A stretch of DNA of 52,407 nt from a virus: UHGV virus genome UHGV-0113213; one strand, 5' to 3'. Position numbers and translations under genes: made by a program. Shown one piece after another: positions 7,523-38,344 of the stretch. The notes under the pieces were generated by a model, which was not told the origin of the DNA, did no database searches, and saw only the letters and a list, made by a program, of their open reading frames with translations. Position 1 is the stretch's first letter. The number at the start of each line of letters is the position of its first letter.

Positions 7523-7587
7523 TGTGATCTGCGTCACGCTAAATCATACCAAAATGGATTGATCGCGGTTTTTACAATATGTATATT
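7523..7587 (+). promoter_or_regulatory. Moron promoter: CRP-like site TGTGATCTGCGTCACG (7523-7538), TACCAAAATGGA element, -35 TTGATC (7559-7564), 17-bp spacer, -10 TATATT (7582-7587)
   Basis: Hexamers and spacing read directly; CRP-like centre ~63 bp upstream of predicted start site (class I-like position). Confidence 0.5.
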
Positions 7588-7633
7588 TTACTCAAACGGA
7601 AGCATAGTTAACAAAATGGCGCGGAGGTGCGTT

Positions 7634-7822
7634 ATGACTGAAAAGCTATGGAAGTTGACGGTATTCATGACAGACGGTAGGGAAAAGGTTATCGCCCTGT
7701 ATGACGACGAGGGTGAAGCATTGGTTGACGCGCTTTTACTTGCTGAGGATGACCGCCTTTTGGGATACCAGATCGAACCTGTCAAATATGAGGCTAACAA
7801 AAATGAAAAAATACAGTCTTGA
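7634..7822 (+). CDS. Small acidic protein (62 aa), moron gene 1 between L and M
   Basis: ATG with GGAGGTG RBS; strongly acidic composition (DDEGEALVDALLLAEDD); opposite strand to tail operon. Confidence 0.6.
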   Translation: MTEKLWKLTVFMTDGREKVIALYDDEGEALVDALLLAEDDRLLGYQIEPVKYEANKNEKIQS

Positions 7823-8150
7823 TGTGTGGTTAAGTGGTAGCAAGGAGTGTTTCGGATTATTTGATAGCGAAGAAGTAGCCCTGGAAGAAGGCAGGATTCT
7901 TGAATGTAGTTTAGGCCATCCAGTGAAATATGCTGCTAATCCGGTACAGATAGTTGATGAGGTGGAAGATATGAACCCGAAAGATATTAATGGTAGCTTC
8001 ACTGCTTATTATGCAGATTCTATGGACCAGTCTTGCCCTGGTGAAATACACGCAAAAGGTTTCCCGGCTGACGATCCAGAAGCAAAACGCGAATACGAAA
8101 AAGCGGCGAAAGATTTCTGTATCGATAACCTTTCAGCATTCGATAAATAA
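7803..8150 (+). CDS. Acidic protein (115 aa), moron gene 2
   Basis: Start MKKYSL overlaps end of previous gene in another frame; acidic; no recognisable family. Confidence 0.6.
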   Translation: MKKYSLDVWLSGSKECFGLFDSEEVALEEGRILECSLGHPVKYAANPVQIVDEVEDMNPKDINGSFTAYYADSMDQSCPGEIHAKGFPADDPEAKREYEKAAKDFCIDNLSAFDK

Positions 8151-8159
8151 GGCGGCAAC

Positions 8160-8408
8160 ATGGGGCGGCGCAATCACGGTGATTATGTGTACACGTTGAA
8201 ACAGGCCGCCCGCCTCATCGGTTATCATGAACACGAATTTATTGATTTGCTGATTGAGCGCGGGATACTGTACCAGGTCTGTTTAACGCTGTACCCGAAA
8301 GCGAAATACCTACATGAAAAGTTATTCATCATCATGACGGATGAAAACCAGGTTAACCATTCATTCGTCACTGATAAGGGCGTTAATTATCTGCGTGATA
8401 ACTTATAG
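8160..8408 (+). CDS. Small protein (82 aa) with possible HTH (YTLKQAARLIGYHEHEFIDLLIERGIL), moron gene 3
   Basis: ORF 10 nt after previous stop; helix-turn-helix-like segment by eye. Confidence 0.5.
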   Translation: MGRRNHGDYVYTLKQAARLIGYHEHEFIDLLIERGILYQVCLTLYPKAKYLHEKLFIIMTDENQVNHSFVTDKGVNYLRDNL

Positions 8409-8530
8409 GTGACTGATTATAAAAATAAAAGTTTTGGCGCTAATAATAATGGGGTTGATAGTATTTGGCGTTCATGCTGTAGATCTGGACTGGAAAACGA
8501 TAGCAGAAAATATAGCATTAATGGAAATAG

Positions 8531-8568
8531 AATAAAAATAACCCCGCTTCGCGCGGGGTCGTGTTTAT
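8531..8568. terminator. Bidirectional terminator after moron cassette (stem CCCCGC/GCGGGG; stronger U-run on minus strand)
   Basis: Hairpin with A-run upstream and T-rich run downstream on plus strand. Confidence 0.55.
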
Positions 8569-8762
8569 ACGCCATCAACCAAAAATAAAACCTCCTTCCC
8601 TTCCCGGGATCTACACCCAACGTACCCATCACCAACGTCGTGAAGATACCATATATCGCCGTTGTCAGCTTTTACAGTAAGGTCGTTGATCTCATAGTCG
8701 TCAAACAATGTAAAAGCGTAAGTTTTGTCAACTACACAAGTCCCGTACATAACAACCCCCAT
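8565..8762 (-). CDS. Small protein (65 aa) inserted between M and L; member of the small paralog family seen at 28676-29581
   Basis: Start overlaps M stop (TAATG); shares C...F...Y and D-x-G-D-x-W-Y motif pattern with the tandem paralogs. Confidence 0.5.
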   Translation of the reverse strand: MGVVMYGTCVVDKTYAFTLFDDYEINDLTVKADNGDIWYLHDVGDGYVGCRSREGKEVLFLVDGV

Positions 8763-9115
8763 TAGCCAACAACTTGCTCAAACGTTGCGTTTAGCGTGTA
8801 CAAAGGCCCGTCTTTAGTCATACTCCATTGCCGACAGACAAAAAGCCTTTGCACGTTATCCATTGACGGCGACCAGTAAAAAGCCTCGACCGCGCCGCGC
8901 GCCCTCAAGAATGCTTCCGCCTGGATTGCTACGTTTCCACCATCACCACATCCGGCGCTACTGCCTTTAAACACCAGGGTGTAGCTATCAAGCAATGGAT
9001 TGATACCTTTTACCTGTCTTTGCTCATAACCATCGCCCAGCTTAACAACAGATACGTCTGGCTTCCTGGTCACGCTGTAGCTTCTTTGCGGCGTCCATCT
9101 GAACACTTCCGGCAT
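8762..9115 (-). CDS. M: Minor tail protein M
   Basis: 117 aa; FRW, GDGY.QR, ATFEQVV motifs as in lambda M; GGGGG RBS. Confidence 0.8.
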   Translation of the reverse strand: MPEVFRWTPQRSYSVTRKPDVSVVKLGDGYEQRQVKGINPLLDSYTLVFKGSSAGCGDGGNVAIQAEAFLRARGAVEAFYWSPSMDNVQRLFVCRQWSMTKDGPLYTLNATFEQVVG

Positions 9116-9150
9116 AAAACCCCCACAAGTTACATTTTGTATATATCTTT

Positions 9151-9178
9151 ACGCGCTTCTACGCGAAAAATAAGATCA
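9151..9178. repeat. TACGCG direct-repeat element TTTACGCGCTTCTACGCGAAAAATA (copy 1)
   Basis: Near-identical 25-27-bp copy at 21418-21445; both lie just upstream of minus-strand structural genes (M, portal). Confidence 0.6.
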
Positions 9179-9200
9179 TTGTCACAATGATTATAGCTAG

Positions 9201-9242
9201 TTTACAAAATGGCTTCACATAGCACGCAACAAGATGTATATA
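9201..9242 (+). promoter_or_regulatory. Moron promoter: TTTACAAAATGGC element, -35 TTCACA (9214-9219), 17-bp spacer, -10 TATATA (9237-9242)
   Basis: Read directly; about 40 bp upstream of the 9283 start codon. Confidence 0.5.
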
Positions 9243-9282: not shown

Positions 9283-9438
9283 ATGAAACGCTATGTAGTA
9301 GTAATGCTAAATAACGCATTCGAACAAGTGGAAATAGCAATCGTTAAGGGTTTCGACGACGCATTCAAATACGGTCAATTCATGATGAATGCGAAAGAAG
9401 ATGAATACCGGGACTTCTTCCTGAAGGCACTTAACTAA
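9283..9438 (+). CDS. Small protein (51 aa), moron gene between M and H (not in ORF track, below 60 aa)
   Basis: ATG preceded by AAGGAGG RBS; MKRYVVVMLNNAFEQVEIAIVKGFDDAFKYGQFMMNAKEDEYRDFFLKALN. Confidence 0.5.
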   Translation: MKRYVVVMLNNAFEQVEIAIVKGFDDAFKYGQFMMNAKEDEYRDFFLKALN

Positions 9439-9455
9439 GGATGATGGGGTGAGTT

Positions 9456-9710
9456 ATGAAACTGGTAGCGATTGACAGAAATCTGAAAGCACAGAAAAAC
9501 GCACAGGACCGGATCATCAAGAAAGGTAAGGAATTACTTAAAGCCTTTCTGAGAAAAGAAGTTTACCCCAAAAAGTTACGCGACGGTTACGGATACAAAA
9601 TGGATATCAATCTTGATTGGAGGCTGTTTAGCGAAGATTTGAAGGTTTGGTTAATTGTTGAGCACCGTGCCTATAACAAGTTATGTGGCGTGAAAGGCAC
9701 TCATAAGTGA
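9456..9710 (+). CDS. Small basic protein (84 aa), second gene of M-H moron
   Basis: RBS GGGGTGAG; Lys/Arg-rich; followed by terminator. Confidence 0.55.
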   Translation: MKLVAIDRNLKAQKNAQDRIIKKGKELLKAFLRKEVYPKKLRDGYGYKMDINLDWRLFSEDLKVWLIVEHRAYNKLCGVKGTHK

Positions 9711-9761: not shown

Positions 9762-9801
9762 CGAAAAATAACCCCGGCATTGCACCGGGGTTTAGTTTAT
9801 T
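9762..9801. terminator. Bidirectional rho-independent terminator (stem CCCCGG/CCGGGG) after moron and after H
   Basis: Hairpin flanked by A-run and T-run; H stop codon lies in the T-run. Confidence 0.65.
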
Positions 9802-12159: not shown

Positions 12160-12221
12160 TGTGATCTGTGTATCTATTTTATACAAAATGGCTTTACTTC
12201 AACGACTCCATTTTGTATAAG
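12160..12221 (+). promoter_or_regulatory. Lipoprotein moron promoter: CRP-like TGTGATCTGTGTATCT (12160-12175), TACAAAATGGC, -35 TTTACT (12193-12198), 17-bp spacer, -10 TATAAG (12216-12221)
   Basis: Read directly; CRP-like centre ~61 bp upstream of predicted start site. Confidence 0.45.
12179..12220. repeat. Perfect 13-bp inverted repeat TTATACAAAATGG / CCATTTTGTATAA with 16-bp spacer in the H / lipoprotein divergent region
   Basis: Arms at 12179-12191 and 12208-12220 are exact reverse complements. Confidence 0.75.
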
Positions 12222-12266: not shown

Positions 12267-12926
12267 ATGAAACGGTTAGCAAAAGTGGCAATGATTGCGG
12301 CGGTATTGGGTCTGGTTGGTTGCAATGAGGATAATGAAAAAGCGCCTATAGTGACCAATCAAGAGCAACAAGCATTAGTAGAGAAAAATGCTAAATGGCT
12401 TGCAGAACAACAAGCAAAACAAGCCGCATACGATGCACAGTTAGAAAAAGAAAATGCTGGTAAACAGTGGCTTGTAGTTGAAAGAAAAGATGATATGCAG
12501 GACGCAAAAAACGTATTCCTTTTTGTGAAAGCAGAACAATTCAGCGGAAGTCTTGATGCTTTCCCGACACTGAAGGCACAGGATAAGAATAAACCGGTAT
12601 TAACAATCGCTTGCCAGGGTAATAAAACAAAAATGTTCGTAGCATGGTCACACCATGTAACTGACGCCGGGGACACTACTTATATTAACTACCGGATCGG
12701 CGTTCACAAAGCTGTAGCTACTGAGTGGTGGCGGTCAACTAATTATAAAGCTCTTGGATTATGGGACGGCAAAAAAGCCATCCCAATGATTAAAAAACTG
12801 GTTAACGAAAAACAATTCATCATTGAAGTAGTGCCGGAAGCTGGCGACATTGAGAAAGCAGTGTTTAACATTGATGGTCTTTATAACCACATCGACAAAG
12901 TGAAAAACGCTTGCAACTGGAATTAA
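12267..12926 (+). CDS. Lipoprotein (219 aa), moron between H and tail chaperone
   Basis: Signal peptide with lipobox LVGC (MKRLAKVAMIAAVLGLVGCNE); opposite strand to structural operon. Confidence 0.7.
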   Translation: MKRLAKVAMIAAVLGLVGCNEDNEKAPIVTNQEQQALVEKNAKWLAEQQAKQAAYDAQLEKENAGKQWLVVERKDDMQDAKNVFLFVKAEQFSGSLDAFPTLKAQDKNKPVLTIACQGNKTKMFVAWSHHVTDAGDTTYINYRIGVHKAVATEWWRSTNYKALGLWDGKKAIPMIKKLVNEKQFIIEVVPEAGDIEKAVFNIDGLYNHIDKVKNACNWN

Positions 12927-12936
12927 GGGGTAAATC

Positions 12937-13311
12937 ATGAAAAAAATAATCAAAGCGGTTCTCATTGGTGTTATGGCTTTAGCTCTTACAGGGTGCGCAA
13001 GATCAACTGATTTCGTTAAGTTAGCTGATAAAAATTTGCAAGTTGGAATGACTTGTGAGCAAGTGAATAAAATAATGGGGGAACCACAAAGAATCGAGCA
13101 TGACGGTAATTATAGTTATCACGTATGGTATTCAGTAACCAGCACGATAGGATTTACTTACATGGATGTTGAAGAATTATCCCCTTCAAGGGTTATCGCA
13201 AAGTTTGATAACTGCATCCTAAAAGAATGGAAAGATCGCAGTAAGGCAAAGTCTGTATACAATACAATCACACACAGTTCACCAGGTACAGCAATTAAAG
13301 ATTTCAATTAG
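12937..13311 (+). CDS. Lipoprotein (124 aa), second moron gene
   Basis: Signal peptide with lipobox LTGC (MKKIIKAVLIGVMALALTGCA). Confidence 0.7.
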   Translation: MKKIIKAVLIGVMALALTGCARSTDFVKLADKNLQVGMTCEQVNKIMGEPQRIEHDGNYSYHVWYSVTSTIGFTYMDVEELSPSRVIAKFDNCILKEWKDRSKAKSVYNTITHSSPGTAIKDFN

Positions 13312-14002
13312 CAAAACGCCCGGATCTACCGGGCTTTTCTTGCTCACGATTTTTCATTCTTTCTAGTGCCTTTTTAGCGGCCTCCATTTGCTCGTCATAA
13401 GCACGTTTATTTATGTGAATGTTTGGCTTGCTTTTCTCGTTTCTTTCGTCTGGCGGCGTTTTAGCGCGTACAGCGGCCCTATATCCGGTCATTGTCATAT
13501 TCCATGCTTCCGATTCTGACAAGCCCAGGTGAGCAACGGCAGAATAGACGAATTCAAGGACGTTAAAAGTCGGCTTATATTCCCCTTCCGGGATTTCCCC
13601 GGACTCTTCTTCCGGGCCATCACCAATAAGACCGTGGTACATGCAGTGCTGCGCAAGCGTGATGATATCCTCGATCGGCATTAATCCGGGCTTTAACTTT
13701 AACTTACCCGAAGGAGTAAACCAGCATTCGCCCAATAACGGGCCTATTTCGTCGTCTGAGCAACATTTCAGGATGTGCATTGATGTCTGAACTATTTCAC
13801 CATAACACCGCGCCAGAATGCGATTGCGTAGGTCTGGATCTGCTGGCAATCGTGATGGATATTTGCCGCCGTGGATAAGTGCGAAATATTCGACAAGCTC
13901 ACTATCGTTGCCGATTTTAGCCATCGCAGCAAAGCAAGGATTAAACTCATAGCGCTTACCGTTCACCACGGCAGCAAATTGTCCTGTACGAACATGGATC
14001 AT
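13304..14002 (-). CDS. Putative tail assembly chaperone (G/GT analogue)
   Basis: Position between major tail protein and tape measure; acidic middle region; start moved to ATG at 14000-14002 with AAGGTG RBS; no frameshift site verified. Confidence 0.45.
   Translation of the reverse strand: MIHVRTGQFAAVVNGKRYEFNPCFAAMAKIGNDSELVEYFALIHGGKYPSRLPADPDLRNRILARCYGEIVQTSMHILKCCSDDEIGPLLGECWFTPSGKLKLKPGLMPIEDIITLAQHCMYHGLIGDGPEEESGEIPEGEYKPTFNVLEFVYSAVAHLGLSESEAWNMTMTGYRAAVRAKTPPDERNEKSKPNIHINKRAYDEQMEAAKKALERMKNREQEKPGRSGRFAN
13318..13342 (+). terminator. Rho-independent terminator after lipoprotein morons (stem GCCCGG/CCGGGC + TTTTCT)
   Basis: Hairpin followed by T-run on plus strand. Confidence 0.6.
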
Positions 14003-28612: not shown

Positions 28613-28674
28613 TTTATAACAAAATGGCACTGCCGAAACAATGCCATTTCGTAAACCTTGTGATACAGATCACA
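28613..28674 (-). promoter_or_regulatory. Promoter with near-consensus CRP-like palindrome TGTGATCTGTATCACA (28659-28674), TTTACGAAATGGCA element, -35 TTGTTT (28636-28641), 17 bp, -10 TATAAA (28613-28618)
   Basis: Read on minus strand; CRP-like centre ~61 bp upstream of predicted start. Confidence 0.5.
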
Positions 28675-28675
28675 T

Positions 28676-29135: not shown

Positions 29136-29144
29136 AACACTACC

Positions 29145-30044: not shown

Positions 30045-30048
30045 GATA

Positions 30049-30276: not shown

Positions 30277-30560
30277 ATTTCTTTCCCTTTATAAGTAACA
30301 GCATCAGCGATCAACAATACCGCCAGCAATTCACCGTCATGTAACGGGTCTGGAATAGCAAAAAATATGTCGCTGTTTTTGTCCGGCACTACTACGCGCA
30401 TATTTCCCTGTTTGTCTTCATGCACGAACCACGGCTTTTCGTGTGGCTCAAACATGCCGAAAAGTAATTTAAGATCTATTTCTTCACCCTTCGTGAATAA
30501 CGACACATCAGTTGTAGTGATAACTAACGCTTTCTGATCTGCTGTTTTCTTCGCTCTCAT
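30273..30560 (-). CDS. Hypothetical protein (95 aa)
   Basis: ORF in operon. Confidence 0.45.
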   Translation of the reverse strand: MRAKKTADQKALVITTTDVSLFTKGEEIDLKLLFGMFEPHEKPWFVHEDKQGNMRVVVPDKNSDIFFAIPDPLHDGELLAVLLIADAVTYKGKEI

Positions 30561-30835
30561 TCCTCTGTCTCCCAGCGGTCTATGCTGATTAAAAAGTCCC
30601 GGATAGCGTGTCGCTCGTCGCGCGTCGGTTTACGCTTCCGGTAAATTTTGAAATCGAACCATTCTTTTTCTTGTTCGAAGTCCAGATCGTAAGCAAGCGC
30701 CTCGATATATCCGCAGTCGTGATACTGGTAAGCCACGCCAGCACGAACAAAAAAGCGGGTTTTATCCCGCTTGTGTTCATAGATACACATATTTGCCCCA
30801 CTATGCAGTTGTGTAACTATCAACCAGCTTTTCAT
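30557..30835 (-). CDS. Hypothetical protein (92 aa)
   Basis: ORF in operon. Confidence 0.45.
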   Translation of the reverse strand: MKSWLIVTQLHSGANMCIYEHKRDKTRFFVRAGVAYQYHDCGYIEALAYDLDFEQEKEWFDFKIYRKRKPTRDERHAIRDFLISIDRWETEE

Positions 30836-31031
30836 CCTTCATTCTGGAAAGCTGCATGATATTCATCGTGTAGCCGTTGTCAGAGAAAAGCCACTCCGCA
30901 GCCTTGCGACGAAAAACAATATCATCATGGTTACGTGTCCATGTAGCTATCACAACGCGTTTCCCGTTAGTGGCGAACATAGATAACGCGTTATCAACTA
31001 CGTCGATAGCCTGCCAGATTTTTAGTTCCAT
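30801..31031 (-). CDS. Hypothetical protein (76 aa)
   Basis: ORF in operon. Confidence 0.4.
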   Translation of the reverse strand: MELKIWQAIDVVDNALSMFATNGKRVVIATWTRNHDDIVFRRKAAEWLFSDNGYTMNIMQLSRMKDEKLVDSYTTA

Positions 31032-31387
31032 GATTTATCTCCGTAGATTTTGAATAGTTCACACGCTTCCTGATTTTCAAGTATATTCATATGCAGGTCA
31101 CGCAGGCGGCGCATTGTGCGGAATCGCGGTCTGAACTCCTGGCTACGTTTAATGTATTTGCCGCCAATTGAATAAATATGCCCGTATGCGTACCATCTGT
31201 TGCCTACCCATATATCATATTCTTTTCCTTCGTAATTAAATTTTATAGTTAGCTCGCCTACTTCAACTATTAACCCTTTATCAATGATGTCATTAAGCAT
31301 TTCGTCCCATTCTTTGAGGAATGGTTGCTGATAAAAACCAAAAAGCGTATTTGCAGCATGGCAAAGATAATCAATGATTATTTGCAT
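31022..31387 (-). CDS. Hypothetical protein (121 aa)
   Basis: ORF in operon. Confidence 0.45.
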   Translation of the reverse strand: MQIIIDYLCHAANTLFGFYQQPFLKEWDEMLNDIIDKGLIVEVGELTIKFNYEGKEYDIWVGNRWYAYGHIYSIGGKYIKRSQEFRPRFRTMRRLRDLHMNILENQEACELFKIYGDKSWN

Positions 31388-31391
31388 ATTA

Positions 31392-31628
31392 TCACCACAT
31401 CATGTAATAAACGTTCTCGTCAGCTAATGCGTCCGCTACATCCTGCGTCATGTGCCTGACTTCAAGGAAAAAATCCTCATCATGCCATTCACTAACAAGC
31501 ATACGCGCCCATTTACGGCGGCGGCGCTTATTGTGTCGTAGATCATCAAAAGTCATTAATGCTTTGTCATATGCCCTTACAAGGCGTTTACGGTTACTTT
31601 TCATTGCTCGACCCACCTTAACATCCAA
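31392..31628 (-). CDS. Hypothetical basic protein (78 aa)
   Basis: ORF in operon. Confidence 0.4.
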   Translation of the reverse strand: MDVKVGRAMKSNRKRLVRAYDKALMTFDDLRHNKRRRRKWARMLVSEWHDEDFFLEVRHMTQDVADALADENVYYMMW

Positions 31629-31909
31629 TTCACATCACATTTAATTGCGAATACTCTCACCGGATCAGTGCCGAATAATGGATGTGTGATAGTTTTCACT
31701 TCGTACCCAAAATAAGGAAGGTTAATAATCCTGTGTTTTTCGTGGTTGGCAGGGTATCCCCATTTAATAATCAGGCGCTCATATTCCCGCCCTTCCAGAC
31801 GTTTACGCCAATAGTCATTATAAAGCCGGTATTCCTCCACCTTCTTTCCCGCCCGGATAGCGTGGAAATATTCCCCTTTCAGATTCAAATGCAGGTCTTT
31901 ACTTGCCAT
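31601..31909 (-). CDS. ASCH-domain-like protein (start uncertain)
   Basis: Motif EYFHAIRAGKKVEEYR resembles ASCH/PUA-like G-K-K-x-x-E-x-R signature. Confidence 0.45.
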   Translation of the reverse strand: MASKDLHLNLKGEYFHAIRAGKKVEEYRLYNDYWRKRLEGREYERLIIKWGYPANHEKHRIINLPYFGYEVKTITHPLFGTDPVRVFAIKCDVNWMLRWVEQ

Positions 31910-32081
31910 CGCTATGATCCTGTAAACAGTCGTTATAGCCTTCAATATATCCGGTTAATCCGGTATTACTCACTGACCATTCAGCCGAACGGCGTTTGAT
32001 GGCCTTGTCCATCGTCATTTCATCGCCTGGTCCGCCTGGCTCAATGTATTTTCTTAAATCCCTTACTATCCACGCCATCAA
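31899..32081 (-). CDS. Hypothetical protein (60 aa)
   Basis: ORF in operon. Confidence 0.35.
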   Translation of the reverse strand: MMAWIVRDLRKYIEPGGPGDEMTMDKAIKRRSAEWSVSNTGLTGYIEGYNDCLQDHSDGK

Positions 32082-32156
32082 TGATGCGTATCACTGCACA
32101 CACGCGCCGTTAATGTCAGGTCATTGACCAGCTTTGCAAATAGATGTTCTTTTAAT

Positions 32157-32504
32157 TTAGGCTTCATTGTCGTCACCTTCGAAATACTGCTCAATCGCAC
32201 GTTTGACGTTCATTTCTCGCTGATAATTGTTACCGCTATAGATTGCGGCTGCCGATACGTGATCGATAATTTGCTGTAATAAATAAGGATGAATTTTTAT
32301 TTTTTCATCAAGGACAATGCGAGATGGCTTAGGTGCTGTAGCAATATCATCAACGATTTCTATCTCACCACCTCCGCCGCAGCGAGGACAAACGAATTTA
32401 TCACCTTGATACAGCATGATGCCGCAACCTTTTTCGGTTTTTACGACCATGCCATCGTCGTCGCAGTTTTCGCAATACAGCCACCGAATATTAATTATTT
32501 TCAT
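32157..32504 (-). CDS. Zinc-ribbon protein (CENCDDDG...CPRCGGGG); start uncertain
   Basis: Two CxxC pairs. Confidence 0.4.
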   Translation of the reverse strand: MKIINIRWLYCENCDDDGMVVKTEKGCGIMLYQGDKFVCPRCGGGGEIEIVDDIATAPKPSRIVLDEKIKIHPYLLQQIIDHVSAAAIYSGNNYQREMNVKRAIEQYFEGDDNEA

Positions 32505-32694
32505 TGTCGTTACTCCGTCCGTAAATATGGACAGGCTCAACTGGTACTGCTGGCAATTCGCCATCATTTAACTCGCTCGCCATGCCTAATATTAAACGCG
32601 CTTCAGCACCAGTGACTTTCTTGCACCATGCGTCGCCTGTTTTATCTTCAAATAAGATAACGGCAAACTGATCGTTTATTTCCAGCTTATCCAT
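32491..32694 (-). CDS. Hypothetical acidic protein (67 aa)
   Basis: ATGA overlap with Q stop. Confidence 0.4.
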   Translation of the reverse strand: MDKLEINDQFAVILFEDKTGDAWCKKVTGAEARLILGMASELNDGELPAVPVEPVHIYGRSNDNENN

Positions 32695-33422
32695 TATTCA
32701 CCCCGTGTCACTCGTTTGATTTCGCTTTCCGCGCGAGATTCTTCTTTGAATAGCTCCGCTATGGCGTCTTCATAGAAAACCCTGTATTTCTTCCACCATG
32801 TTGATCTGCTTACCGGGAAAACAAGCTGGTTAACAGCCTGCCGGACGAGATCTACAGGGAAACGCGAGTACCCGCGCCCGCCGCAGTGCTGGCACGTTTT
32901 GAATACTGGCATTTCCGCCGCTTCGCTGGCTGCTTTATCCGGTACTTCGCCACGCCCCTTGCACCTCTGGCAATGGTTTTTAACGTAGCCTTTGCCGTTG
33001 CACCGCGAGCAAACTGTCGATGTGTATTCACAATATGGATTCGGTAAAAGCCCGTTACCTCCGCACTTAGGGCAAACCTTTTCGGTAGCCGCACTTTGGC
33101 AGTAATCCCGAAACGCGAAAACGGCAACAAGAATAATAAGATCATTGCGTTGTTCTTCATTTAATTCCATCACGTATTCGTAATCTTTCGCCATAACCCT
33201 TAAACGCTCTGTAAGCAAAATTACGGCCCTGTGTTTTTCAGCTTGCGATAGCTCCATTTTCCCTAAAAAAGCACTATAGCCAAGCTCTACGCGCGATTGC
33301 GCCATACCAGCGGCGGTAAGCGCATCCGTCGTATTAAGTGCATCCGGGGATGTTCCCCGGCTTTCGTCTGATAATCGCGGTGATTTGGGAAAGTGGAATT
33401 TCAGAATGGATTCTAAATTCAT
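32694..33422 (-). CDS. Q: Late-gene antiterminator Q-like protein (242 aa)
   Basis: N-terminus MNLESILKFHFPKSPRLSD...AAGMAQS...AFLGK and multiple CxxC zinc motifs match my recollection of the Q antitermination family; located after NinG-RusA. Confidence 0.65.
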   Translation of the reverse strand: MNLESILKFHFPKSPRLSDESRGTSPDALNTTDALTAAGMAQSRVELGYSAFLGKMELSQAEKHRAVILLTERLRVMAKDYEYVMELNEEQRNDLIILVAVFAFRDYCQSAATEKVCPKCGGNGLLPNPYCEYTSTVCSRCNGKGYVKNHCQRCKGRGEVPDKAASEAAEMPVFKTCQHCGGRGYSRFPVDLVRQAVNQLVFPVSRSTWWKKYRVFYEDAIAELFKEESRAESEIKRVTRGE

Positions 33423-33604
33423 TATTTACCCCCATAGCGAGCAATAAGGCGTTTGCGATCAGAAATGGTTTGCACCAGTTTTCTTTCAAGCTCTTTCAGC
33501 GCAAGTAATTCCTGCATGTGAAAAGCCTGGATTCGTCTGACTGTCGCTAAATCATGCTCGTCACGTTGAACATCTATTTGCAGATCTTTAATTTCGTTTT
33601 TCAT
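33422..33604 (-). CDS. Hypothetical protein (60 aa)
   Basis: ORF between RusA and Q. Confidence 0.4.
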   Translation of the reverse strand: MKNEIKDLQIDVQRDEHDLATVRRIQAFHMQELLALKELERKLVQTISDRKRLIARYGGK

Positions 33605-34008
33605 TGCTCACCCCACATATTAGTCGCATATTCGTTAATATCCGGTAGCAGGTCGCCGCGTTCGCATACCTTAATAAACAATCGCCCGCCTTTTACCTTC
33701 CGGCAGCGGACAATTTTTATTGAGTCGATTTGCCCATCATCATTCCAGAATCCGGCACAAGTAAGGCTGTCAAAAAGGCATTTTGGGATATTATCAAGAT
33801 CTCTGACCCGGTTATCCGGCGGCGCGGCATAAATGGCGATTGCCAGTCGGCAAGATAGGTTAATGTCTAAATTTAATAATTCGATGATGTCTTTTACTTG
33901 TTCCCGGTATTCCTTCCCCACTTCGCTGATATAGTGAAAACCTCGTGAATGTCGGTAATATCGGTTATTAGATGGCGGGTAAGGTAGGCTAAATGTATAC
34001 TCGTTCAT
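33601..34008 (-). CDS. rusA: Holliday junction resolvase RusA
   Basis: Motifs LPYPPSNNRYYRH, RDLDN, GFWNDD, VKGGRL match RusA family. Confidence 0.85.
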   Translation of the reverse strand: MNEYTFSLPYPPSNNRYYRHSRGFHYISEVGKEYREQVKDIIELLNLDINLSCRLAIAIYAAPPDNRVRDLDNIPKCLFDSLTCAGFWNDDGQIDSIKIVRCRKVKGGRLFIKVCERGDLLPDINEYATNMWGEQ

Positions 34009-34610
34009 GCTGCCTTTCTCCTTAAGGCGTCCAATTTTGCCTGATAGATGTTTATTAGCTCCTTACATTCTGCGATCGTCCATTTATGCGTATCATTGTT
34101 GTTCTCCAGCGCTTCCACCCTGGCGAGGCCAATTTTTCGAATCAGTGCTGGGCGATAGGCTTGTATGTTTCCGTCTAATGTCTGATTGCAGTGCCTACAT
34201 TGTTTATGGACGTTATCTTCATTGAAGCGAAGGTGTCCGGCGGCGGCGACCGTCCTGTAATGCCCCGCATCGTATCCGCATTGCTCACCGTAGTAAGTCC
34301 CGCAGGATATGCACGGCAACCGCGCGTCACGTTCGCGGATATAGGCATTAAATACCGCTTGTGCCTGCTTTAACCAATAGCTACGCGGATTTAACTGCTT
34401 CCGCTTCCGGTTGCGTTCTTCCCGCTGGCTATCACGGCGTTTCTTCCGTTCCATAGCCTTCATAGCCTTCTCACGGTCGCGGCATAACTGGTCAAATTTC
34501 AGTTCTTCCAGGCATTCGTCGCTGCACCACGTTTGATTGTGATATTTAGGCTCAAAAAAAACGCCGCAGCATTTGCAACGGCGTCTTATTGGTTTCTTAG
34601 GGTTTTGCAT
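34005..34610 (-). CDS. ninG: NinG / Rap recombination protein
   Basis: Start moved to MQNPKKPIRRRCK; motifs RSYWLKQAQ, LPCISCGT, DAGHYRT, LRFNE.N.HKQC as in lambda NinG. Confidence 0.85.
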   Translation of the reverse strand: MQNPKKPIRRRCKCCGVFFEPKYHNQTWCSDECLEELKFDQLCRDREKAMKAMERKKRRDSQREERNRKRKQLNPRSYWLKQAQAVFNAYIRERDARLPCISCGTYYGEQCGYDAGHYRTVAAAGHLRFNEDNVHKQCRHCNQTLDGNIQAYRPALIRKIGLARVEALENNNDTHKWTIAECKELINIYQAKLDALRRKAA

Positions 34611-34624
34611 AAAAACCACCCCAA

Positions 34625-34801
34625 TTATTTTTGATTCTCTGTTTCGTTCAGCCTTTCGGCGTGTCCGGCCCTTAGCGAGTGATCTACACATTCGTTGTAC
34701 TCGTTACATTCTCCTTTTTTCGTGCTGCATACATTGCACATTGCACGCATGACGCTTTCTCGTTCATAGTCGTCATGCCATTGGTAATCATCAAAAGACA
34801 T
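34625..34801 (-). CDS. Small Cys-rich protein (58 aa; CNVCSTKKGECNEYNEC), not in ORF track
   Basis: ATG with AAGGAG RBS; overlaps spurious N-terminal extension of NinG track ORF in another frame. Confidence 0.4.
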   Translation of the reverse strand: MSFDDYQWHDDYERESVMRAMCNVCSTKKGECNEYNECVDHSLRAGHAERLNETENQK

Positions 34802-34825
34802 AATGCTCTCTCCTTTTCAGGTGAT

Positions 34826-34864
34826 TTCTACGCATTTCAGCGCTGCCGGATTTTTAAAGAGCAT
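34826..34864 (-). promoter_or_regulatory. Internal nut-like site: boxA ATGCTCTTTAAAAATCCGG plus hairpin CGCUGAAAUGCG
   Basis: 18-mer identical to the rightward-leader boxA at 43321-43339; same 3-nt spacing to a short GAA-containing hairpin. Confidence 0.45.
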
Positions 34865-34960
34865 TTTGTTTGCTTGAAGTATACAAAATGGATACCCCCA
34901 AACAAGGCAAAAAGCGCCATTATGTGATCCGCATCACGCAATGATGCCATTTTGTAAACT

Positions 34961-35725
34961 TTAGTCCGGTAAAATGCGGTTAAGCGTAGTACGAGTGATG
35001 GCCCGGTCGTTAGCCAGGAATACAGCACGGGCAAAGCCGCGCGGCGTTAGTGAGCGGATCATCTTAGTGCGTTTCGACTCTCCTCCTAACTTCGCGTGCT
35101 GTTTGCTGTCTTCCCATTCATCCGGCATAGGTACAGGCCGGAATAGCGGCTGCTTAAATCCATTCCCGCACCAGATACAAGTTTTCTTCGTGTATGCGTC
35201 GCGGGCAGCTATGTATTCAGGGAAAGCAGGGTGTTTGTCGTCTTCAGGCAGGTAGCCACCGTAAGCGCACGGGTTGAAGATAAAATCAGGTTTGCGCCAT
35301 AACGTTGACAGCGCACCTACCGGATTTTCCACCATCCACGGGACGTGGTACATATCAGCAAGCGTTTCTACCAGTTTTGCGTTGTATACCGCCTTCTGCT
35401 GGAAGTAAGGTTCTTTTTTCCGCTTATCAGCAAACCAGCGAGCGCCGGACACCGCAAGATCGTCGCACGGAGGAAAGCCCAGGATAATGTCAGGATCTGG
35501 ATAAACAGACAATTCAGGGGAGAACATTACCAGGAAATGGCTGTCAATCCATACGTTGATATACTCAATGTTCGGATGAATGATTTTGACGCCTTCATAA
35601 TCGCCGTGATTAGCGCCATCATAGTTGAAGCAATAGCATTTATAACCAGCGTCGGCCCAATCTTTAACGGCGTATCCGCTGCCGTCGTACAGCGACCACA
35701 CCACCCAATTTCTAAGCCCACTCAT
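34961..35725 (-). CDS. C5-cytosine DNA methyltransferase-like protein (divergent, 254 aa)
   Basis: Motif I-like LYDGSGYA, catalytic PC-like GFPPCDDLAVSG, ENV-like ENPVGA. Confidence 0.5.
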   Translation of the reverse strand: MSGLRNWVVWSLYDGSGYAVKDWADAGYKCYCFNYDGANHGDYEGVKIIHPNIEYINVWIDSHFLVMFSPELSVYPDPDIILGFPPCDDLAVSGARWFADKRKKEPYFQQKAVYNAKLVETLADMYHVPWMVENPVGALSTLWRKPDFIFNPCAYGGYLPEDDKHPAFPEYIAARDAYTKKTCIWCGNGFKQPLFRPVPMPDEWEDSKQHAKLGGESKRTKMIRSLTPRGFARAVFLANDRAITRTTLNRILPD

Positions 35726-36225
35726 TTCCTACCCTCGAACGTAAAGTAGCGGCGCATGATGATAGTGATCACCGTTACCGCCGCCATTTTTGAGATGAAT
35801 TGCATAGCTGATATTTCCGGCATGAATGCCATAAACGATAGCGTTGGGAAAATTAACGCATCGCCAATGGCGGACGCTATATTTGCAGGCCAGCGTTTAG
35901 AATCGAAATCACCAGGTAAAACCCGGTAAACGCCGCCAGAAATAAGCGCACCGGAAACAACCGCGACGAATGACGCGATCGCCACCATTCCGGCGTCGTA
36001 ATTTATCAGCACCGTGATTGCGCCAGCGGCGGCGCATGTTGTAGCCGACCATTTAAGGCCGCCGTCATATAACAGAAAATCACGAATCATCATATTGACA
36101 CACACGGCGGCTACCGTGGTGATCGGAATTACCCACGGGCCACAGTGGTTAACAATAAGATTGATGATAACGAAAACGGCGACATAAACGCAGGCTAATA
36201 ACCTGTCAATTGCCACCATCTTCAT
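35722..36225 (-). CDS. Integral membrane protein (167 aa, 4-5 TM helices); weak resemblance to YhhQ/VUT transporter family
   Basis: Hydrophobic profile by eye; family assignment tentative. Confidence 0.45.
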   Translation of the reverse strand: MKMVAIDRLLACVYVAVFVIINLIVNHCGPWVIPITTVAAVCVNMMIRDFLLYDGGLKWSATTCAAAGAITVLINYDAGMVAIASFVAVVSGALISGGVYRVLPGDFDSKRWPANIASAIGDALIFPTLSFMAFMPEISAMQFISKMAAVTVITIIMRRYFTFEGRK

Positions 36226-36400
36226 TTAGCTCTTCCTCCCGATACGCTAATATCTGTTCGGCCTTAAGCGCGTTATAAGCAATAAGGTCTATAAGAGTGT
36301 CGAGCGGATCAGTTCCATTAGCGAGAATAGCCCCTAAACGCGCTTCCTTGAGGCAAATCATTAGATCCCATACATCAAGTGGGGTTAAATTCGCATTCAT
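36206..36400 (-). CDS. Hypothetical protein (64 aa)
   Basis: ORF in operon. Confidence 0.35.
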   Translation of the reverse strand: MNANLTPLDVWDLMICLKEARLGAILANGTDPLDTLIDLIAYNALKAEQILAYREEELNEDGGN

Positions 36401-36517
36401 CTTAGCGTTGAAAATAGCCGCTATTTTTGGCGCTGATTTTTCTTCTTTTCGATCGTATCCGTTTTGCTCCCTCTTGCCTCGATAGTTTCAGCCGCAAGTC
36501 TCAGCAATTCAGCCGCT

Positions 36518-37057
36518 TTATTCATTTTCTGCACCTCTTGCATATAGCTCTTTACGTGTTATCTGCGTGAAAATACATTCATGTCTGCATCGTGGATGCC
36601 AGATCAGGAACAAGCTCCCCTTATTGTTCCCGCTTACTGGTTTCCCTGTTGCAGCATTGATAAACGCCAGCCGCCCGCGCGTGATTAATCGGCATTCGTT
36701 TGCCGTCTCCACGCCGTTCATAAACCAGCTAACAGAAATGTCAGCGGGCAATAACATTACGCATCCGATATGATTTCGGCTGTGTTCAAGCGCCGCTTTA
36801 TCAACGAATGGCCCCGGATTAGAATATGGCGGATTCATCCAGACATACTCACCAGGCATCGCCACCGCTCCCCACGGATAATGGAGCGTGTCCATTTCTT
36901 CGGTTATATATCGCGGTATTAATGCGTTTGCCTTGTTTGCCGCCACATCCGCGACGAACTCGAATTCTCGATCCATTCCTCTAAAAACGGGTTTTGGCGT
37001 TTGCCATAAGTCCTTTATTTCTTTCGGCGTATGGCTGCCGCCGTAATCATTTTTCAT
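36518..37057 (-). CDS. Phage-type DNA N6-adenine methyltransferase
   Basis: Motif WMNPPYS (NPPY catalytic motif), size ~180 aa typical of phage Dam family. Confidence 0.75.
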   Translation of the reverse strand: MKNDYGGSHTPKEIKDLWQTPKPVFRGMDREFEFVADVAANKANALIPRYITEEMDTLHYPWGAVAMPGEYVWMNPPYSNPGPFVDKAALEHSRNHIGCVMLLPADISVSWFMNGVETANECRLITRGRLAFINAATGKPVSGNNKGSLFLIWHPRCRHECIFTQITRKELYARGAENE

Positions 37058-37066
37058 TACGCCCCC

Positions 37067-37555
37067 TTAGAAATAATCCTGATCTGTTCCCCAGCGGTTA
37101 TTCAGATACCCCACCAACCACACAAAACGCTCAATACTGATTAGCGGGGCGACCTTGCGATAATGCTTATCTAATATCAGCCGCGTGGCTTTATCGCTGT
37201 AGCCGTTCTTCTCTACCTCCGCTTTGCAGGCCGAAAGCGCGGCGCGGGCGGCAGTCTTTACGGCGTTAAATTGCGGCTCTGACATATTGAATAAGGCCAT
37301 AGGATCACCATGTGTCAGTCCAATCCGGCGCGGCAGTCCAGCAAAAACCAATGAATGCGCTAACAGCCAATAAAGCGCGGGCTGCAAAAAGAATATTCCC
37401 AATGTCGTTAAATTCAGGAAGCGACCACGTAATAAACATAGCCCCAGCATAATAACACCGATAACAGTCATGGCCGCCAGGAAAACAAAAAGCGTAGCCA
37501 AAAGCCACGCCCCCAACCAGTTAAAAAAGCTCTTAAGCATTTTAAACGTCCTCAA
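37067..37555 (-). CDS. Membrane protein (162 aa, N-terminal TM helices)
   Basis: ORF in operon; hydrophobic N-terminal half. Confidence 0.45.
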   Translation of the reverse strand: MRTFKMLKSFFNWLGAWLLATLFVFLAAMTVIGVIMLGLCLLRGRFLNLTTLGIFFLQPALYWLLAHSLVFAGLPRRIGLTHGDPMALFNMSEPQFNAVKTAARAALSACKAEVEKNGYSDKATRLILDKHYRKVAPLISIERFVWLVGYLNNRWGTDQDYF

Positions 37556-37745
37556 TTACCCCGCCTTTCACACGCTCTTTAATATCCCATACGTGAGGCT
37601 TGCATATTTCCTGATAATAGTGATCCGGCCTGCTGCCGAAATACCATTTGCCATCCATATAAAAATAAACGCCAGAATAATTTCCTGGCGCTGCCTTTGT
37701 TGCTGCTTCTGGAATTTTCCATTCCATGTAATGTTTAAATTTCAT
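37542..37745 (-). CDS. Hypothetical protein (67 aa)
   Basis: ORF in operon. Confidence 0.4.
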   Translation of the reverse strand: MKFKHYMEWKIPEAATKAAPGNYSGVYFYMDGKWYFGSRPDHYYQEICKPHVWDIKERVKGGVIEDV

Positions 37746-37929
37746 GAGTTTTTAAATAACCCCTTCTGAATGCTTTGATGTAAAGTCCTAGCCTTCTTAT
37801 ATGCTGAACGCCATCAATGATGCGCACTAAATAAATTGCACCGTTTGTGTCAGATACAAAATGACAGCCAAAACCAATACCAACCAACTTCAGGTTGTCA
37901 GGTATTCTATAATCAGTTTTCTGTTCCAT
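37735..37929 (-). CDS. Hypothetical protein (64 aa)
   Basis: ORF in operon. Confidence 0.4.
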   Translation of the reverse strand: MEQKTDYRIPDNLKLVGIGFGCHFVSDTNGAIYLVRIIDGVQHIRRLGLYIKAFRRGYLKTHEI

Positions 37930-37932
37930 GCC

Positions 37933-38025
37933 TCACCTCATATGGTATTCAATAAACCACCTGATAAACAGACATAAGGCAATAAAACCCCAGCAACAGC
38001 ACATATAAAACAATGTGTCGTCCAT
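37933..38025 (-). CDS. Mini-gene, 30-aa hydrophobic peptide MDDTLFYMCCCWGFIALCLFIRWFIEYHMR
   Basis: ATG 2 nt after upstream stop, GAGG RBS; next gene starts 3 nt after its stop. Confidence 0.4.
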   Translation of the reverse strand: MDDTLFYMCCCWGFIALCLFIRWFIEYHMR

Positions 38026-38027
38026 AA

Positions 38028-38246
38028 TTAAGCCTCAATAACACCGTAATCGAACGTGCCTAAATACCGTTCGATACTTACAACCTCAATACCATCAATG
38101 CACCGTTTCCACACAGACACCTGGCTTTCATTTTCTCTGAAGTGCATATTAGAAAGCACTTCATCGGCTGGGTAGCCTTTCCCGGCGACGTAGGCATCGT
38201 GACCTACGCCACCTTCTACGCAATAAAGCATCAATTCGCGTTCCAT
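38028..38246 (-). CDS. Hypothetical protein (72 aa; start at MERELML)
   Basis: GGAGGAAACAAG RBS before internal ATG. Confidence 0.4.
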   Translation of the reverse strand: MERELMLYCVEGGVGHDAYVAGKGYPADEVLSNMHFRENESQVSVWKRCIDGIEVVSIERYLGTFDYGVIEA

Positions 38247-38344
38247 CTTGTTTCCTCCGTGCCGTAAACCTCTTAATTTCAGTTTACAAAACGGATATGC
38301 GATCGCAATACAAAATGTATATTTATGTGATCGCAATCACGCTG

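Follow-up and report, generated by a model that had tools for sequence, protein, structure and literature searches.

The 52,407-nt stretch analysed here (the window) belongs to a temperate gut phage of the mEp021 group, an E. coli prophage of the mEpimmI (mEp021-like) type, and it raises the question of what reads the CRP-like palindromes that precede many of its promoters. The initial annotation had listed six such 16-mers with a common TGTGATCT core, had placed some of them about 60-63 bp upstream of predicted starts, and had proposed CRP-linked expression of accessory genes. All six quoted 16-mers are present in the window; the site at 28659-28674 is real, although the letters quoted for it are those of the minus strand (plus strand, TGTGATACAGATCACA), and the site assigned to 34922-34937 exists but occupies 34923-34938. 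Two sites of the same kind, 9171-9186 and 43184-43199, extend the list (Table 1). We consider it probable (roughly 60%) that the palindromes are host cAMP-CRP dimer sites within a repeated, mEpimmI-specific promoter cassette and serve class I activation.

Table 1. Candidate CRP-type sites and promoter elements in the window; promoters, centres (relative to the start) and driven units are predicted, and bits are CRP-matrix scores of the window's own copies
Element	Span	Strand	Palindrome	Box	-35	-10	Bits	Centre	Downstream unit
Module A, palindrome	590-605	+	TGTGATCTGTGTTACA				12.7	~-82.5	Lipoprotein (superinfection-exclusion type) moron, 722-970
Module A, perfect FNR-type consensus TTGATTTATATCAA (only exact TTGAT-N4-ATCAA in window)	632-645	+				GATATT 668-673		-41.5	As above
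Module B	7523-7587	+	TGTGATCTGCGTCACG 7523-7538	TACCAAAATGG 7547-7557	TTGATC 7559-7564	TATATT 7582-7587	14.5	-63.5	Moron 7634-8408: small ORFs, KilAC-like protein
Module C	9171-9242	+	TAAGATCATTGTCACA 9171-9186	TACAAAATGG 9203-9212	TTCACA 9214-9219	TATATA 9237-9242	5.2	-70.5	51-aa ORF and ParE-like toxin moron (ParE_like Pfam match), 9283-9710
Module D	12160-12221	+	TGTGATCTGTGTATCT 12160-12175	TACAAAATGG 12182-12191	TTTACT 12193-12198	TATAAG 12216-12221, overlapped by inverted box CCATTTTGTA 12208-12217	8.8	-60.5	VasI/TagO-like moron (VasI Pfam match), 12267-13311
Module E	28613-28674	-	TGTGATCTGTATCACA (perfect) 28659-28674	TACGAAATGG 28644-28653	TTGTTT 28636-28641	TATAAA 28613-28618, with inverted box	17.3	-60.5	Small genes leftwards from 28577
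Module G	34878-34956	-	CGTGATGCGGATCACA 34923-34938	TACAAAATGG 34947-34956	TTGTTT 34900-34905	TATACT 34878-34883, with inverted box CCATTTTGTA	16.9	-59.5	Directly downstream: nutR2 (boxA TGCTCTTTAAAAA, about 34825-34866) and ninG-rusA-Q
Module F	38281-38341	-	CGTGATTGCGATCACA 38326-38341	TACATTTTGTA (box-like) 38309-38319	TTGCGA 38303-38308	TAAACT 38281-38286, with inverted box CCGTTTTGTA	16.0	-59.5	Two small genes (38246-37735), then terminator 37692-37668
nutL read-through early promoter	43184-43245	+	TTTGATGCAAGTCACA 43184-43199	Inverted, CCATTTTGTA 43232-43241	TTGATC 43217-43222	TAAACT 43240-43245	14.0	-60.5	Via nutL into replication genes
nutR1-gp17 (N-like) early promoter, comparator	42359-42398	-		TACAAAATGG 42389-42398, abutting -35	TTGACT 42382-42387	TATATT 42359-42364			gp17

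The palindromes are enriched beyond chance. Allowing one mismatch or none, the window contains 9 copies of TGTGA-N6-TCACA where 1.40 are expected, a number reached in 0 of 100 shuffles; scored with a matrix of 22 documented E. coli CRP sites, 9 positions attain at least 12.5 bits, compared with 1.16 in shuffles (maximum 4 in 200 shuffles); and the exact TGTGATCTG is present in 4 copies against 0.31 expected. The sites are also as CRP-like as genuine ones, scoring 12.7-17.3 bits where the known sites have a leave-one-out median of 14.0, with the best match of the window in module E and T in place of G5 in the left half-site at 43184. The window's own copies in modules C and D are weak. At 12160-12175, listed in the initial annotation as a full site, only the left half-site is good in the window, but the relatives carry TGTGA-N6-TCTCT with a median of 15.2 bits; in module C the relatives carry TGAGA-N6-TCACA with a variable spacer (median 12.4, maximum 17.1 bits). 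For modules A, C, D, E, and F, roughly half of the variants from relatives score below 12.5 bits. One further match, 39933-39948 (16.5 bits), was rejected as a chance occurrence, being located inside a small membrane-peptide ORF and decaying in relatives.

Examination of about 100 related phage loci revealed nearly invariant GTGA/TCAC half-sites, with a spacer that varies more than any other part of its intergenic region. Entropy amounts to 0.22 bits for the half-sites and 0.70 for the spacer, compared with 0.39 for the remainder of the same intergenic segments (Mann-Whitney p = 2e-7). In particular, all 24 unique relatives of module B score at least 14.1 bits, with zero entropy in the half-sites and 0.66 bits in the spacer; all 36 of module G score at least 13.9 bits, with GTGAT and TCACA invariant and five central bases free; TGTGAT is invariant in 27 unique relatives of module D, where the spacer varies; and the module F palindrome is conserved among 33. 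The matrix derived from 103 unique phage variants agrees with the E. coli CRP matrix both in information profile (r = 0.93) and in column correlation (0.87, where the null gives 0.11 +/- 0.12). Its most conserved positions, G5, G7, C16, and C18, are the bases named as critical for the CRP site (PMC5772556); purifying selection acts on exactly the CRP-critical bases. Retained half-sites around a free spacer are, as read from these alignments, the conservation pattern of a CRP site. The region around 43184 is almost invariant in relatives, and conservation there is therefore uninformative. In module E, homology in relatives begins right at the palindrome, which makes the upstream flank mosaic and moron-like.

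The class I geometry suggested earlier was borne out with independently predicted promoters, and at more of them than had been listed. At five promoters (D, E, F, G, and nutL) the -10 hexamer follows the centre of the palindrome by 47.5-48.5 bp, which places the centre at about -60, and this distance to the conserved -10 elements is constant even though the intervening 31-32 nt are mostly unrelated in sequence; D, E, and nutL share the 48.5-bp register. For comparison, the distance from the CRP centre to the -10 hexamer in lac is 49.5. Together with those of modules A, B, and C, the predicted centres (about -60, -63.5, -70.5, and -82.5) are at class I-like positions; those at -59.5 to -60.5 and -63.5 (-62.5 in module B relatives with a 1-bp deletion) are 1-2 bp away from the canonical -61.5. 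The orientation of the cassette is that of the downstream gene in 8 of 8 cases, and the predicted starts imply 5' UTRs of 28-42 nt. The core promoters have weak -35 hexamers, the usual T at -7 is missing from the predicted -10 hexamers TATAAG, TATAAA, and TATATA, and the sigma-70 scan of the tool accepted only module B and the nutR1 promoter.

Each cassette also contains a far stronger companion motif, overlooked in the earlier description. This A-rich box, TACAAAATGG, has 16 exact copies, mostly intergenic and mostly co-oriented with transcription, and occurs at both early promoters; it is a strictly conserved 10-mer at -46 to -37 that recurs in inverted form over the -10 region. Class I promoters often have an UP-like sequence just 3' of the CRP site, with AAAAAARNR as the consensus for the proximal UP subsite (PMC4132738); in that register the box ACAAAATGG matches 7 of 9 positions. 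The nutR1-gp17 early promoter has the box, and the CRP-type site is absent there. The box thus occurs independently of the palindrome, and the palindrome is not an immunity operator common to both early promoters.

The 590 site, previously grouped with the others, is indeed a CRP-type palindrome but its architecture differs: a perfect FNR box follows on its downstream side, 41 bp away centre to centre. All 14 unique relatives share its TGTGA half; they have TT(A/G)CA as the right half and differ in the spacer. The relatives also preserve TTGAT and TCAA of the FNR box around a variable N4, and the GGATATTTAAG -10 region does not change among them. The predicted -10 hexamer sets the FNR box at -41.5, which would put the palindrome at about -82.5. 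A conserved perfect FNR box at class II distance indicates that this phage does use sites of host global regulators.

Taken together, conserved look-alikes of sites for CRP, the regulator of the host's response to sugar starvation, at a set distance upstream of at least seven phage promoters suggest a link between the carbon status of the host and the expression of accessory genes and some early ones, with host cAMP-CRP as the best candidate reader; from the sequence we infer where transcription starts, that CRP occupies the sites, and in which direction and by which mechanism it regulates. In the mechanism we propose, a cAMP-CRP dimer would bind the palindrome inside a repeated cassette of about 90 bp, some 60 bp before the start of a promoter whose -35 hexamer is weak, or one to two helical turns farther away, and would recruit RNA polymerase via the alpha C-terminal domain, for which the TACAAAATGG box may be the docking place beside sigma region 4. 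At the lipoprotein moron, CRP at about -82.5 would act together with FNR at -41.5. Predicted targets of the cassettes are four morons on the opposite strand of the tail region, two in-line accessory units, the nutL read-through early promoter, which points away from the repressor gene, and the promoter before nutR2-ninG-Q (the nutR2 position is consistent with PMC11893012), and these units would all be turned up under high cAMP. The proposed CRP link is thus supported by a match as good as that of documented sites, CRP-type conservation, and a class I-type distance, but its restriction to accessory genes does not hold, as the cassette is also found at 43184 and before nutR2-ninG-rusA-Q (34923). 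CRP is not mentioned in the mEpimmI paper.

A rather unlikely alternative is that a dimeric regulator encoded by the phage reads the palindromes, and the cassettes form an internal middle or delayed-early regulon whose operator resembles that of CRP. The candidate would be a MarR-like 185-aa protein (48740-49297), an early-operon product, or a protein that escaped recognition; a winged-helix regulator is conserved in the family. Palindrome and box are enriched in the mEpimmI family only (1.7 vs 0.13 per 10 kb in distant relatives) and are absent from distant relatives sharing tail or NinG genes, which a family-specific phage regulator would equally produce; the phage's own early promoter is among the cassettes, and, compared with E. 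coli sites, T9 is more conserved and the first base, T4, is variable. Against this, the information profile is that of CRP position by position, the free spacer seen here is at odds with MarR-family sites, in which the sequence is usually constrained throughout the dyad, and neither a Crp/Fnr-family protein nor a Crp-type HTH was found among the proteins of the phage. Moreover, judging by documented sites, abundant cAMP-CRP would occupy sites of 14-17 bits anyway. Such occupancy could also repress or insulate, by blocking the divergent repressor-gene promoter at 43184, where the site is 26-41 bp in front of the start codon of the repressor, by acting as a roadblock to late-operon or antisense transcription at the moron junctions, or by bending DNA for a factor at the TACAAAATGG boxes. 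Such a role is in line with the repression of T1-like prophage promoters by cAMP-CRP (PMC6737242), with the location of the B, C, and D sites within minus-strand tail-gene leaders, and with the box-type elements on either side of the palindromes in G and F. We nevertheless regard it as improbable, since the constant 47.5-48.5 bp to a co-oriented -10 hexamer across unrelated sequence in five cassettes is the spacing that activation from one face of the helix demands, and weak -35 hexamers are those of activator-dependent promoters.

Two further explanations are very doubtful. The first is that the palindromes form RNA hairpins within the long early or late transcripts and serve there as terminators or sites of processing. 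A conserved stem and a variable loop would likewise be expected of a hairpin, and the predicted terminator TERM_4 (20087-20120) in the mEp021 GenBank record coincides with the G palindrome, t4 being given in the mEp021 paper as predicted only. The stems are, however, A/U-rich and only 5-6 bp long, with no 3' U-tract at B, C, D, E, and F; at G, the terminator scan gave no call for the palindrome on the minus strand, which is the transcribed one; compensatory changes are not seen, because the half-sites do not vary; and genuine bidirectional terminators with G+C-rich stems are located elsewhere at moron ends. Nor is it at all plausible that functionless palindromes with an accidental resemblance to CRP sites were carried along in a duplicated cassette. 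Paralogy is clear for D and E, so that the shared core may partly reflect cassette duplication, it is weak for F-G and G-nutL, and four sites have the exact TGTGATCTG in common; but neutral inheritance explains neither zero-entropy half-sites beside the most variable bases of the region (24-36 unique variants) nor spacing retained where the intervening sequence has diverged past recognition.

Like the E. coli class I promoters lac P1 and the synthetic CC(-61.5), CC(-71.5), and CC(-82.5), the predicted phage promoters have a 22-bp TGTGA-N6-TCACA site with A/T flanks, a centre about 60, 70, or 82 bp upstream of the start, a weak -35 hexamer, and an A-rich stretch between the CRP site and -35 at the place of alpha-CTD (PMC4132738). 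They differ in that the cassette is repeated at at least eight promoters with predicted centres 1-2 bp nearer than -61.5, and in that the stretch is a conserved 10-mer, recurring inverted over -10, rather than a generic UP element. Module A is reminiscent of E. coli ansB, which is co-activated by FNR at -41.5 and CRP upstream at -91.5: both have an FNR consensus at class II distance from the -10 region, invariant in module A, and a CRP-type site upstream on the same helical face, but the upstream site of module A would be at about -82.5, has a weak right half (TTACA/TTGCA), and would drive a phage lipoprotein moron.

Morons under host regulators include Fur-controlled stx1, the PhoP-controlled Gifsy genes, and OxyR/Dam-controlled Mu mom. 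The units described here are likewise independent promoter-gene-terminator units between conserved phage genes (for the moron concept, see PMC3594210), with a candidate host-factor site in the promoter. They differ in that a single cassette type serves many morons and core early promoters. Dispersed operators are known from other temperate phages, namely the C1 operators of P1 and the stoperators of mycobacteriophage L5; they resemble the short asymmetric TACAAAATGG, repeated at least 16 times genome-wide and present at both early promoters, and the likeness concerns the box rather than the palindrome, which the nutR1 early promoter lacks. Finally, in a T1-like prophage the promoters pir, dam, and recE are directly regulated by cAMP-CRP (Laganenka et al. 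2019, PMC6737242). CRP represses there, no site architecture being described in the passages on this control, whereas an activation geometry is observed here in an unrelated phage family; host CRP couples coliphage expression to sugar influx at several promoters in T1, and would do so here at predicted ones.

All six 16-mer palindromes quoted in the initial annotation were found in the window, where the word TGTGATCTG occurs in four copies (0.31 expected) and the CRP-type site TGTGA-N6-TCACA, with at most one mismatch, nine times (1.40 expected; none of 100 shuffles reaches nine). A symmetric recognition matrix for CRP, the cAMP-dependent regulator of the host, was built from 22 experimentally supported E. 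coli sites (Table S1 of PMC5772556), which score 5.3-20.6 bits with a median of 14.0 in a leave-one-out procedure; nine window positions reach at least 12.5 bits, where dinucleotide shuffling (200 replicates) gives 1.16 and never more than 4. Among the promoter units carrying palindromes, designated modules A-G, the four critical bases G5, G7, C16, and C18 are all present in B, E, F, and G (14.5-17.3 bits). C16 is missing from module A and, in the window, from D, as is G5 from C; most relatives of C and D keep these bases. The match at 39933, located within a small ORF for a hydrophobic peptide, has not been retained in relatives and has the appearance of a chance match. The ORF, unannotated and encoding the peptide MSMVKIAALAAAFVIGVIYITASFYVAVFIAELIVALLG, is itself kept as a coding sequence in relatives.

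By megablast the window belongs with the temperate E. coli siphophages of the mEp021/mEpimmI group, sharing about 85% identity with mEp021, mEp044, and MagusPhagus, and related prophages at 85-97% identity are present in 35 complete E. coli genomes. We collected about 100 related loci from IMG/VR, anchored on the tail M gene, NinG, ERF (7 relatives only), and the lipoprotein gene, and aligned the unique intergenic variants. In every module GTGA and TCAC are almost fixed, and variability in the region peaks between them; for instance, the 18 variants of the 34923 site include GTGAT-GCGG-ATCACA, GTGAT-GAAT-GTCACA, and GTGAT-TTAT-GTCACA. When all modules are pooled, the half-sites have an entropy of 0.22 bits, compared with 0.70 for the spacer and 0.39 for the remaining positions (p = 2e-7). 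Of the 22 positions in the matrix derived from 103 unique phage 22-mers, 21 share the E. coli CRP consensus; the information profiles correlate at 0.93, and the column correlation is 0.87 versus 0.11 +/- 0.12 for permuted columns. Conservation limited to the half-sites, a free central spacer, and a CRP-like information profile together form the pattern of CRP-type sites. GATC occurs in all seven window sites and is missing from 7 of the 18 module G variants and many of module C, position 10 carrying near-zero information; since so many variants lack it, Dam methylation is not what is conserved.

The gene map of the window was transferred from two sources, strain M1/5 as annotated by PGAP and the mEp021 record. 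The minus strand carries the tail, head, lysis, Q, Nin, and recombination genes, and the plus strand the replication genes, with the integrase at the right end; one repressor is common to all known mEpimmI members. Four plus-strand units, belonging to modules A-D, break up the tail operon from the opposite strand and end in G+C-rich bidirectional terminators. Module E is missing from mEp021, and its left boundary, which coincides with the palindrome, is mosaic. Modules A-F qualify as morons, defined as self-contained units with their own promoter and terminator that are inserted between conserved genes and vary among relatives. Module G and the nutL promoter, an early promoter reading into the replication genes, drive core genes and do not qualify as morons. 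The proposal that CRP may regulate morons had to be corrected in scope because the sites also serve promoters of core genes. In the unit of module C, a 51-aa protein precedes a protein with a ParE-like toxin domain (Pfam PF24732, E = 2e-11), likely forming a toxin-antitoxin pair inside the tail operon. The unit of module D encodes a VasI/TagO-like protein associated with type VI secretion (Pfam PF11319, E = 1e-15) and a small BamE-like one. The annotations of a further minus-strand gene at 20022-21416 are in conflict (see table).

Positions of regulatory elements, transcription units, and genes (strand in parentheses where assigned)
Feature	Position	Description
CRP-type site, module A	590	12.7 bits; predicted centre -82.5
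CRP-type site, module B	7523	14.5 bits; predicted centre -63.5
CRP-type site, module C	9171	5.2 bits, weak; predicted centre -70.5
CRP-type site, module D	12160	8.8 bits; half-site only in window
CRP-type site, module E	28659	17.3 bits
CRP-type site, module F	38326	16.0 bits
CRP-type site, module G	34923	16.9 bits
CRP-type site, nutL promoter	43184	14.0 bits
CRP-type match in ORF	39933	16.5 bits
FNR consensus, module A	632-645	TTGATTTATATCAA
Box-abutted -35/-10	7559	TTGATC / TATATT
Box-abutted -35/-10	9214	TTCACA / TATATA
Box-abutted -35/-10	12193	TTTACT / TATAAG
Box-abutted -35/-10	28641	TTGTTT / TATAAA
Box-abutted -35/-10	42387	TTGACT / TATATT
-10 after inverted box	12216	TATAAG
-10 after inverted box	28618	TATAAA
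-10 after inverted box	34883	TATACT
-10 after inverted box	38286	TAAACT
-10 after inverted box	43240	TAAACT
Box copies	617, 9133(-), 9203, 9594, 12182, 12209(-), 20202(-), 34882, 34948(-), 37855, 38309, 41711(-), 42390(-), 43233(-), 46075, 47214(-)	TACAAAATG(G/T)
Palindromic box variant	9133-9145(-), 41711-41724(-), 46075-46088(+)	TACAAAATGTAA(A)C
Unit of module A	722-970(+)	lipoprotein; terminator 976-996
Unit of module B	7634-8408(+)	KilAC-like; terminator 8541-8559
Unit of module C	9283-9710(+)	ParE-like toxin and 51-aa partner; terminator 9770-9792
Unit of module D	12267-13311(+)	VasI/TagO-like and BamE-like; terminator 13318-13334
Terminator, module F	37692-37668	end of unit
nut sites	34825-34866(-), 43322-43365(+), ~42290-42320(-)	boxA TGCTCTTTAAAAATCC or GCACTTTAAAAATC
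Inverted repeat and TGCRAGT copies	43189-43249 and 42351-42388	27-nt-arm repeat centred on -35 of nutL promoter; TGCRAGT around both early promoters
CI/LexA-like repressor	42511-43158	HTH_3 + Peptidase_S24
First nutL-operon gene	43386-43730(+)	annotated MarR-family regulator
Small ORF	39901-40020(-)	hydrophobic peptide
Conflicting annotation	20022-21416(-)	anti-CBASS Acb1 family protein (PGAP, M1/5 orthologue); portal protein (mEp021, MagusPhagus records)

No word in the window, the palindrome included, is more over-represented than TACAAAATG, with 16 exact copies versus 0.75 expected. This companion motif, the box, is specific to the mEpimmI family, and in IMG/VR the box pair TACAAAATGG-N10-30-CCATTTTGTA was found in mEpimmI contigs only, apart from two unrelated single palindromes. 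Per 10 kb, the palindrome occurs 1.7 times in the family versus 0.13 in distant relatives, and the box 3.7 times versus 0. At five promoters the TACAAAATGG box stops one base short of a -35-like hexamer, which is followed 17 bp on by a -10-like hexamer, and at five promoters an inverted copy, CCATTTTG, leads directly into the -10. In all five inverted-box promoters the best CRP-type site lies 47.5-48.5 bp upstream of the -10; the intervening 31-32 nt are similar only between modules D and E and, weakly, among F, G, and the nutL promoter. The box was also considered as a -35 element (TTTACA/TATACA), which was rejected as most TACAAAATGG copies have no -10 located 16-18 bp downstream, and as the start of a small ORF or a leaderless message, which was rejected as the copies lack an SD and open frames that end after 5-10 codons and differ from the frame of the genes downstream. 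The likeness of the box to OmpR, TyrR, LexA, or IHF sites is unconvincing. Candidate readers of the box are the repressor (Rep021 in mEp021), the MarR-like protein encoded at 48740-49297, and the alpha-CTD, for which the box would be a UP-like element. A palindromic variant of the box, containing ATG-TAA, lies 10-15 nt upstream of the SD of tail M, of a small ORF before ERF, and of the gene at 46105; among mEp021-like relatives, the variant at 9133 has a degenerate sequence.

At class I promoters CRP is centred near -61.5, -71.5, -82.5, or -92.5, on the same face as RNA polymerase. With the start predicted 7 bp after the predicted -10, the inverted-box promoters have their CRP-type sites centred at -59.5 (two) or -60.5 (three), and the predicted centres for modules B, C, and A are -63.5, -70.5, and -82.5. 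Each cassette, comprising a palindrome, box, and core promoter, is oriented toward its downstream gene with an implied leader of 28-42 nt, and most -35/-10 pairs fall below the threshold of a sigma-70 scan. Class I CRP promoters are well established, as are the rules for their spacing, and the consensus of the proximal UP subsite is AAAAAARNR (PMC4132738). A class I mechanism would fit the predicted position of the sites, the weakness of the -35 hexamers, and the A-rich box, whose register is that of a proximal UP subsite.

Module A has a different design. Its CRP-type site is followed 41 bp downstream by a perfect FNR consensus, the sole exact one in the window, located upstream of the exclusion-type lipoprotein gene. 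The 14 variants of this module keep TTGAT and (A/G)TCAA and leave N4 free. The promoter could be placed only via the FNR box and not from the other cassettes: an invariant GATATT begins 29.5 bp from the centre of the box, which positions FNR at a predicted -41.5; class II FNR-dependent promoters have TTGAT-N4-ATCAA centred at about -41.5. This arrangement suggests that expression of the lipoprotein may be oxygen-dependent. The box and the FNR site required a correction to the promoter architecture initially described as well, and the palindrome observation itself is both confirmed and extended.

A nut site (boxA TGCTCTTTAAAAA) immediately follows both the 34923 and the 43184 cassette, matching the published positions of nutR2 and nutL (PMC11893012). 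All three nut sites lie directly downstream of predicted promoters, and therefore nutR2 appears to own a promoter, beyond read-through. The motif TGCRAGT occurs five times around the two early promoters, among them as TTGACTCG-N22-CGAGTCAA, which flanks the nutR1 promoter. The position expected for Cro is taken by the first nutL-operon gene, whose product matches O-like replication initiators in their N-terminal part (PHROGs, E = 5e-22); no obvious Cro was seen.

We consider host cAMP-CRP the best-supported candidate reader of the palindromes, with a probability of roughly 0.6, and it would be expected to occupy, in vivo, sites that score as well as the median genuine one. A family-specific phage regulator is a possible reader instead, and the enrichment of both palindrome and box in the mEpimmI family only speaks for it. 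Relatives have no Crp/Fnr-type protein in their PGAP or GenBank annotations, and none was detected by Pfam or PHROG scans of candidate regulators or by tblastn with the CRP sequence. The literature yielded no CRP ChIP or EMSA data for strains carrying an mEpimmI-type prophage, and to our knowledge none of the 35 complete genomes is that of a strain with CRP ChIP data. The palindrome was rejected as an immunity operator of the CI-like repressor since the nutR1 early promoter has no TGTGA-N6-TCACA-like site (42330-42450); TTGACTCG...CGAGTCAA, TGCRAGT, and the inverted repeat at the nutL promoter are better candidates for such an operator than either palindrome or box.

Two further explanations were considered. 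TERM_4, a terminator predicted in mEp021, coincides with the 34923 palindrome; a minus-strand scan of 26500-43500 gave no call at the palindrome, whose stem consists of GUGAU/AUCAC only, and the features of an intrinsic terminator, a G+C-rich stem and a U-tract after it, are lacking on the transcribed strand. The late promoters of phage P2 combine a TGT-N12-ACA dyad at about -55 with a gene for the Ogr/Delta zinc-finger activator. The window palindrome is, in contrast, TGT-N10-ACA, and no Ogr_Delta-type protein is present in the annotation or in Pfam scans; a P2-type late promoter was rejected on account of the wrong spacing and the missing activator gene.

If the sites work as predicted for host CRP, carbon source would affect the lysogenic-conversion and exclusion genes, the likely toxin-antitoxin pair, and some of the route leading to the late-gene antiterminator Q, and the lipoprotein would depend on oxygen as well, so that the nutrient status of the gut would be directly linked to prophage behaviour. 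A broader scheme, which we regard as doubtful, would join a host activator and a phage repressor in a dispersed two-key system across the whole non-late transcription of the mEpimmI family. One portable cassette (CRP site, TACAAAATGG box, and box-type -10) would place the nutL/replication promoter, the nutR2-Q promoter, and every moron under cAMP gating, with FNR added at the exclusion lipoprotein. A phage factor, either the repressor or the MarR-like protein, would use the box as its operator and override CRP.

The paper defining mEpimmI covers the repressor, the three nut sites, and the exclusion lipoproteins, gives no promoter or operator sequences, does not mention CRP, and reports a prevalence in human gut E. 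coli equal to that of lambdoid phages (PMC11893012). We found no description of the palindromes, cassette, or box in the mEpimmI literature covered, and despite this prevalence the promoters and operators of the group were hitherto undescribed. The fixed cassette reveals a second conserved motif, the box, and offers eight natural promoters for studies of the class I spacing rules. Host-regulated morons are exemplified by stx1 with Fur and mom with OxyR. Morons with sites for host regulators are already known (PMC3594210), and in a T1-like prophage host CRP has been shown to control phage promoters, acting as a repressor (PMC6737242). Against this background the palindromes belong to a known type of site, and the cassette and box are the less ordinary part; the dispersed two-key promoter system, if true, would be undescribed for any E. 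coli phage.
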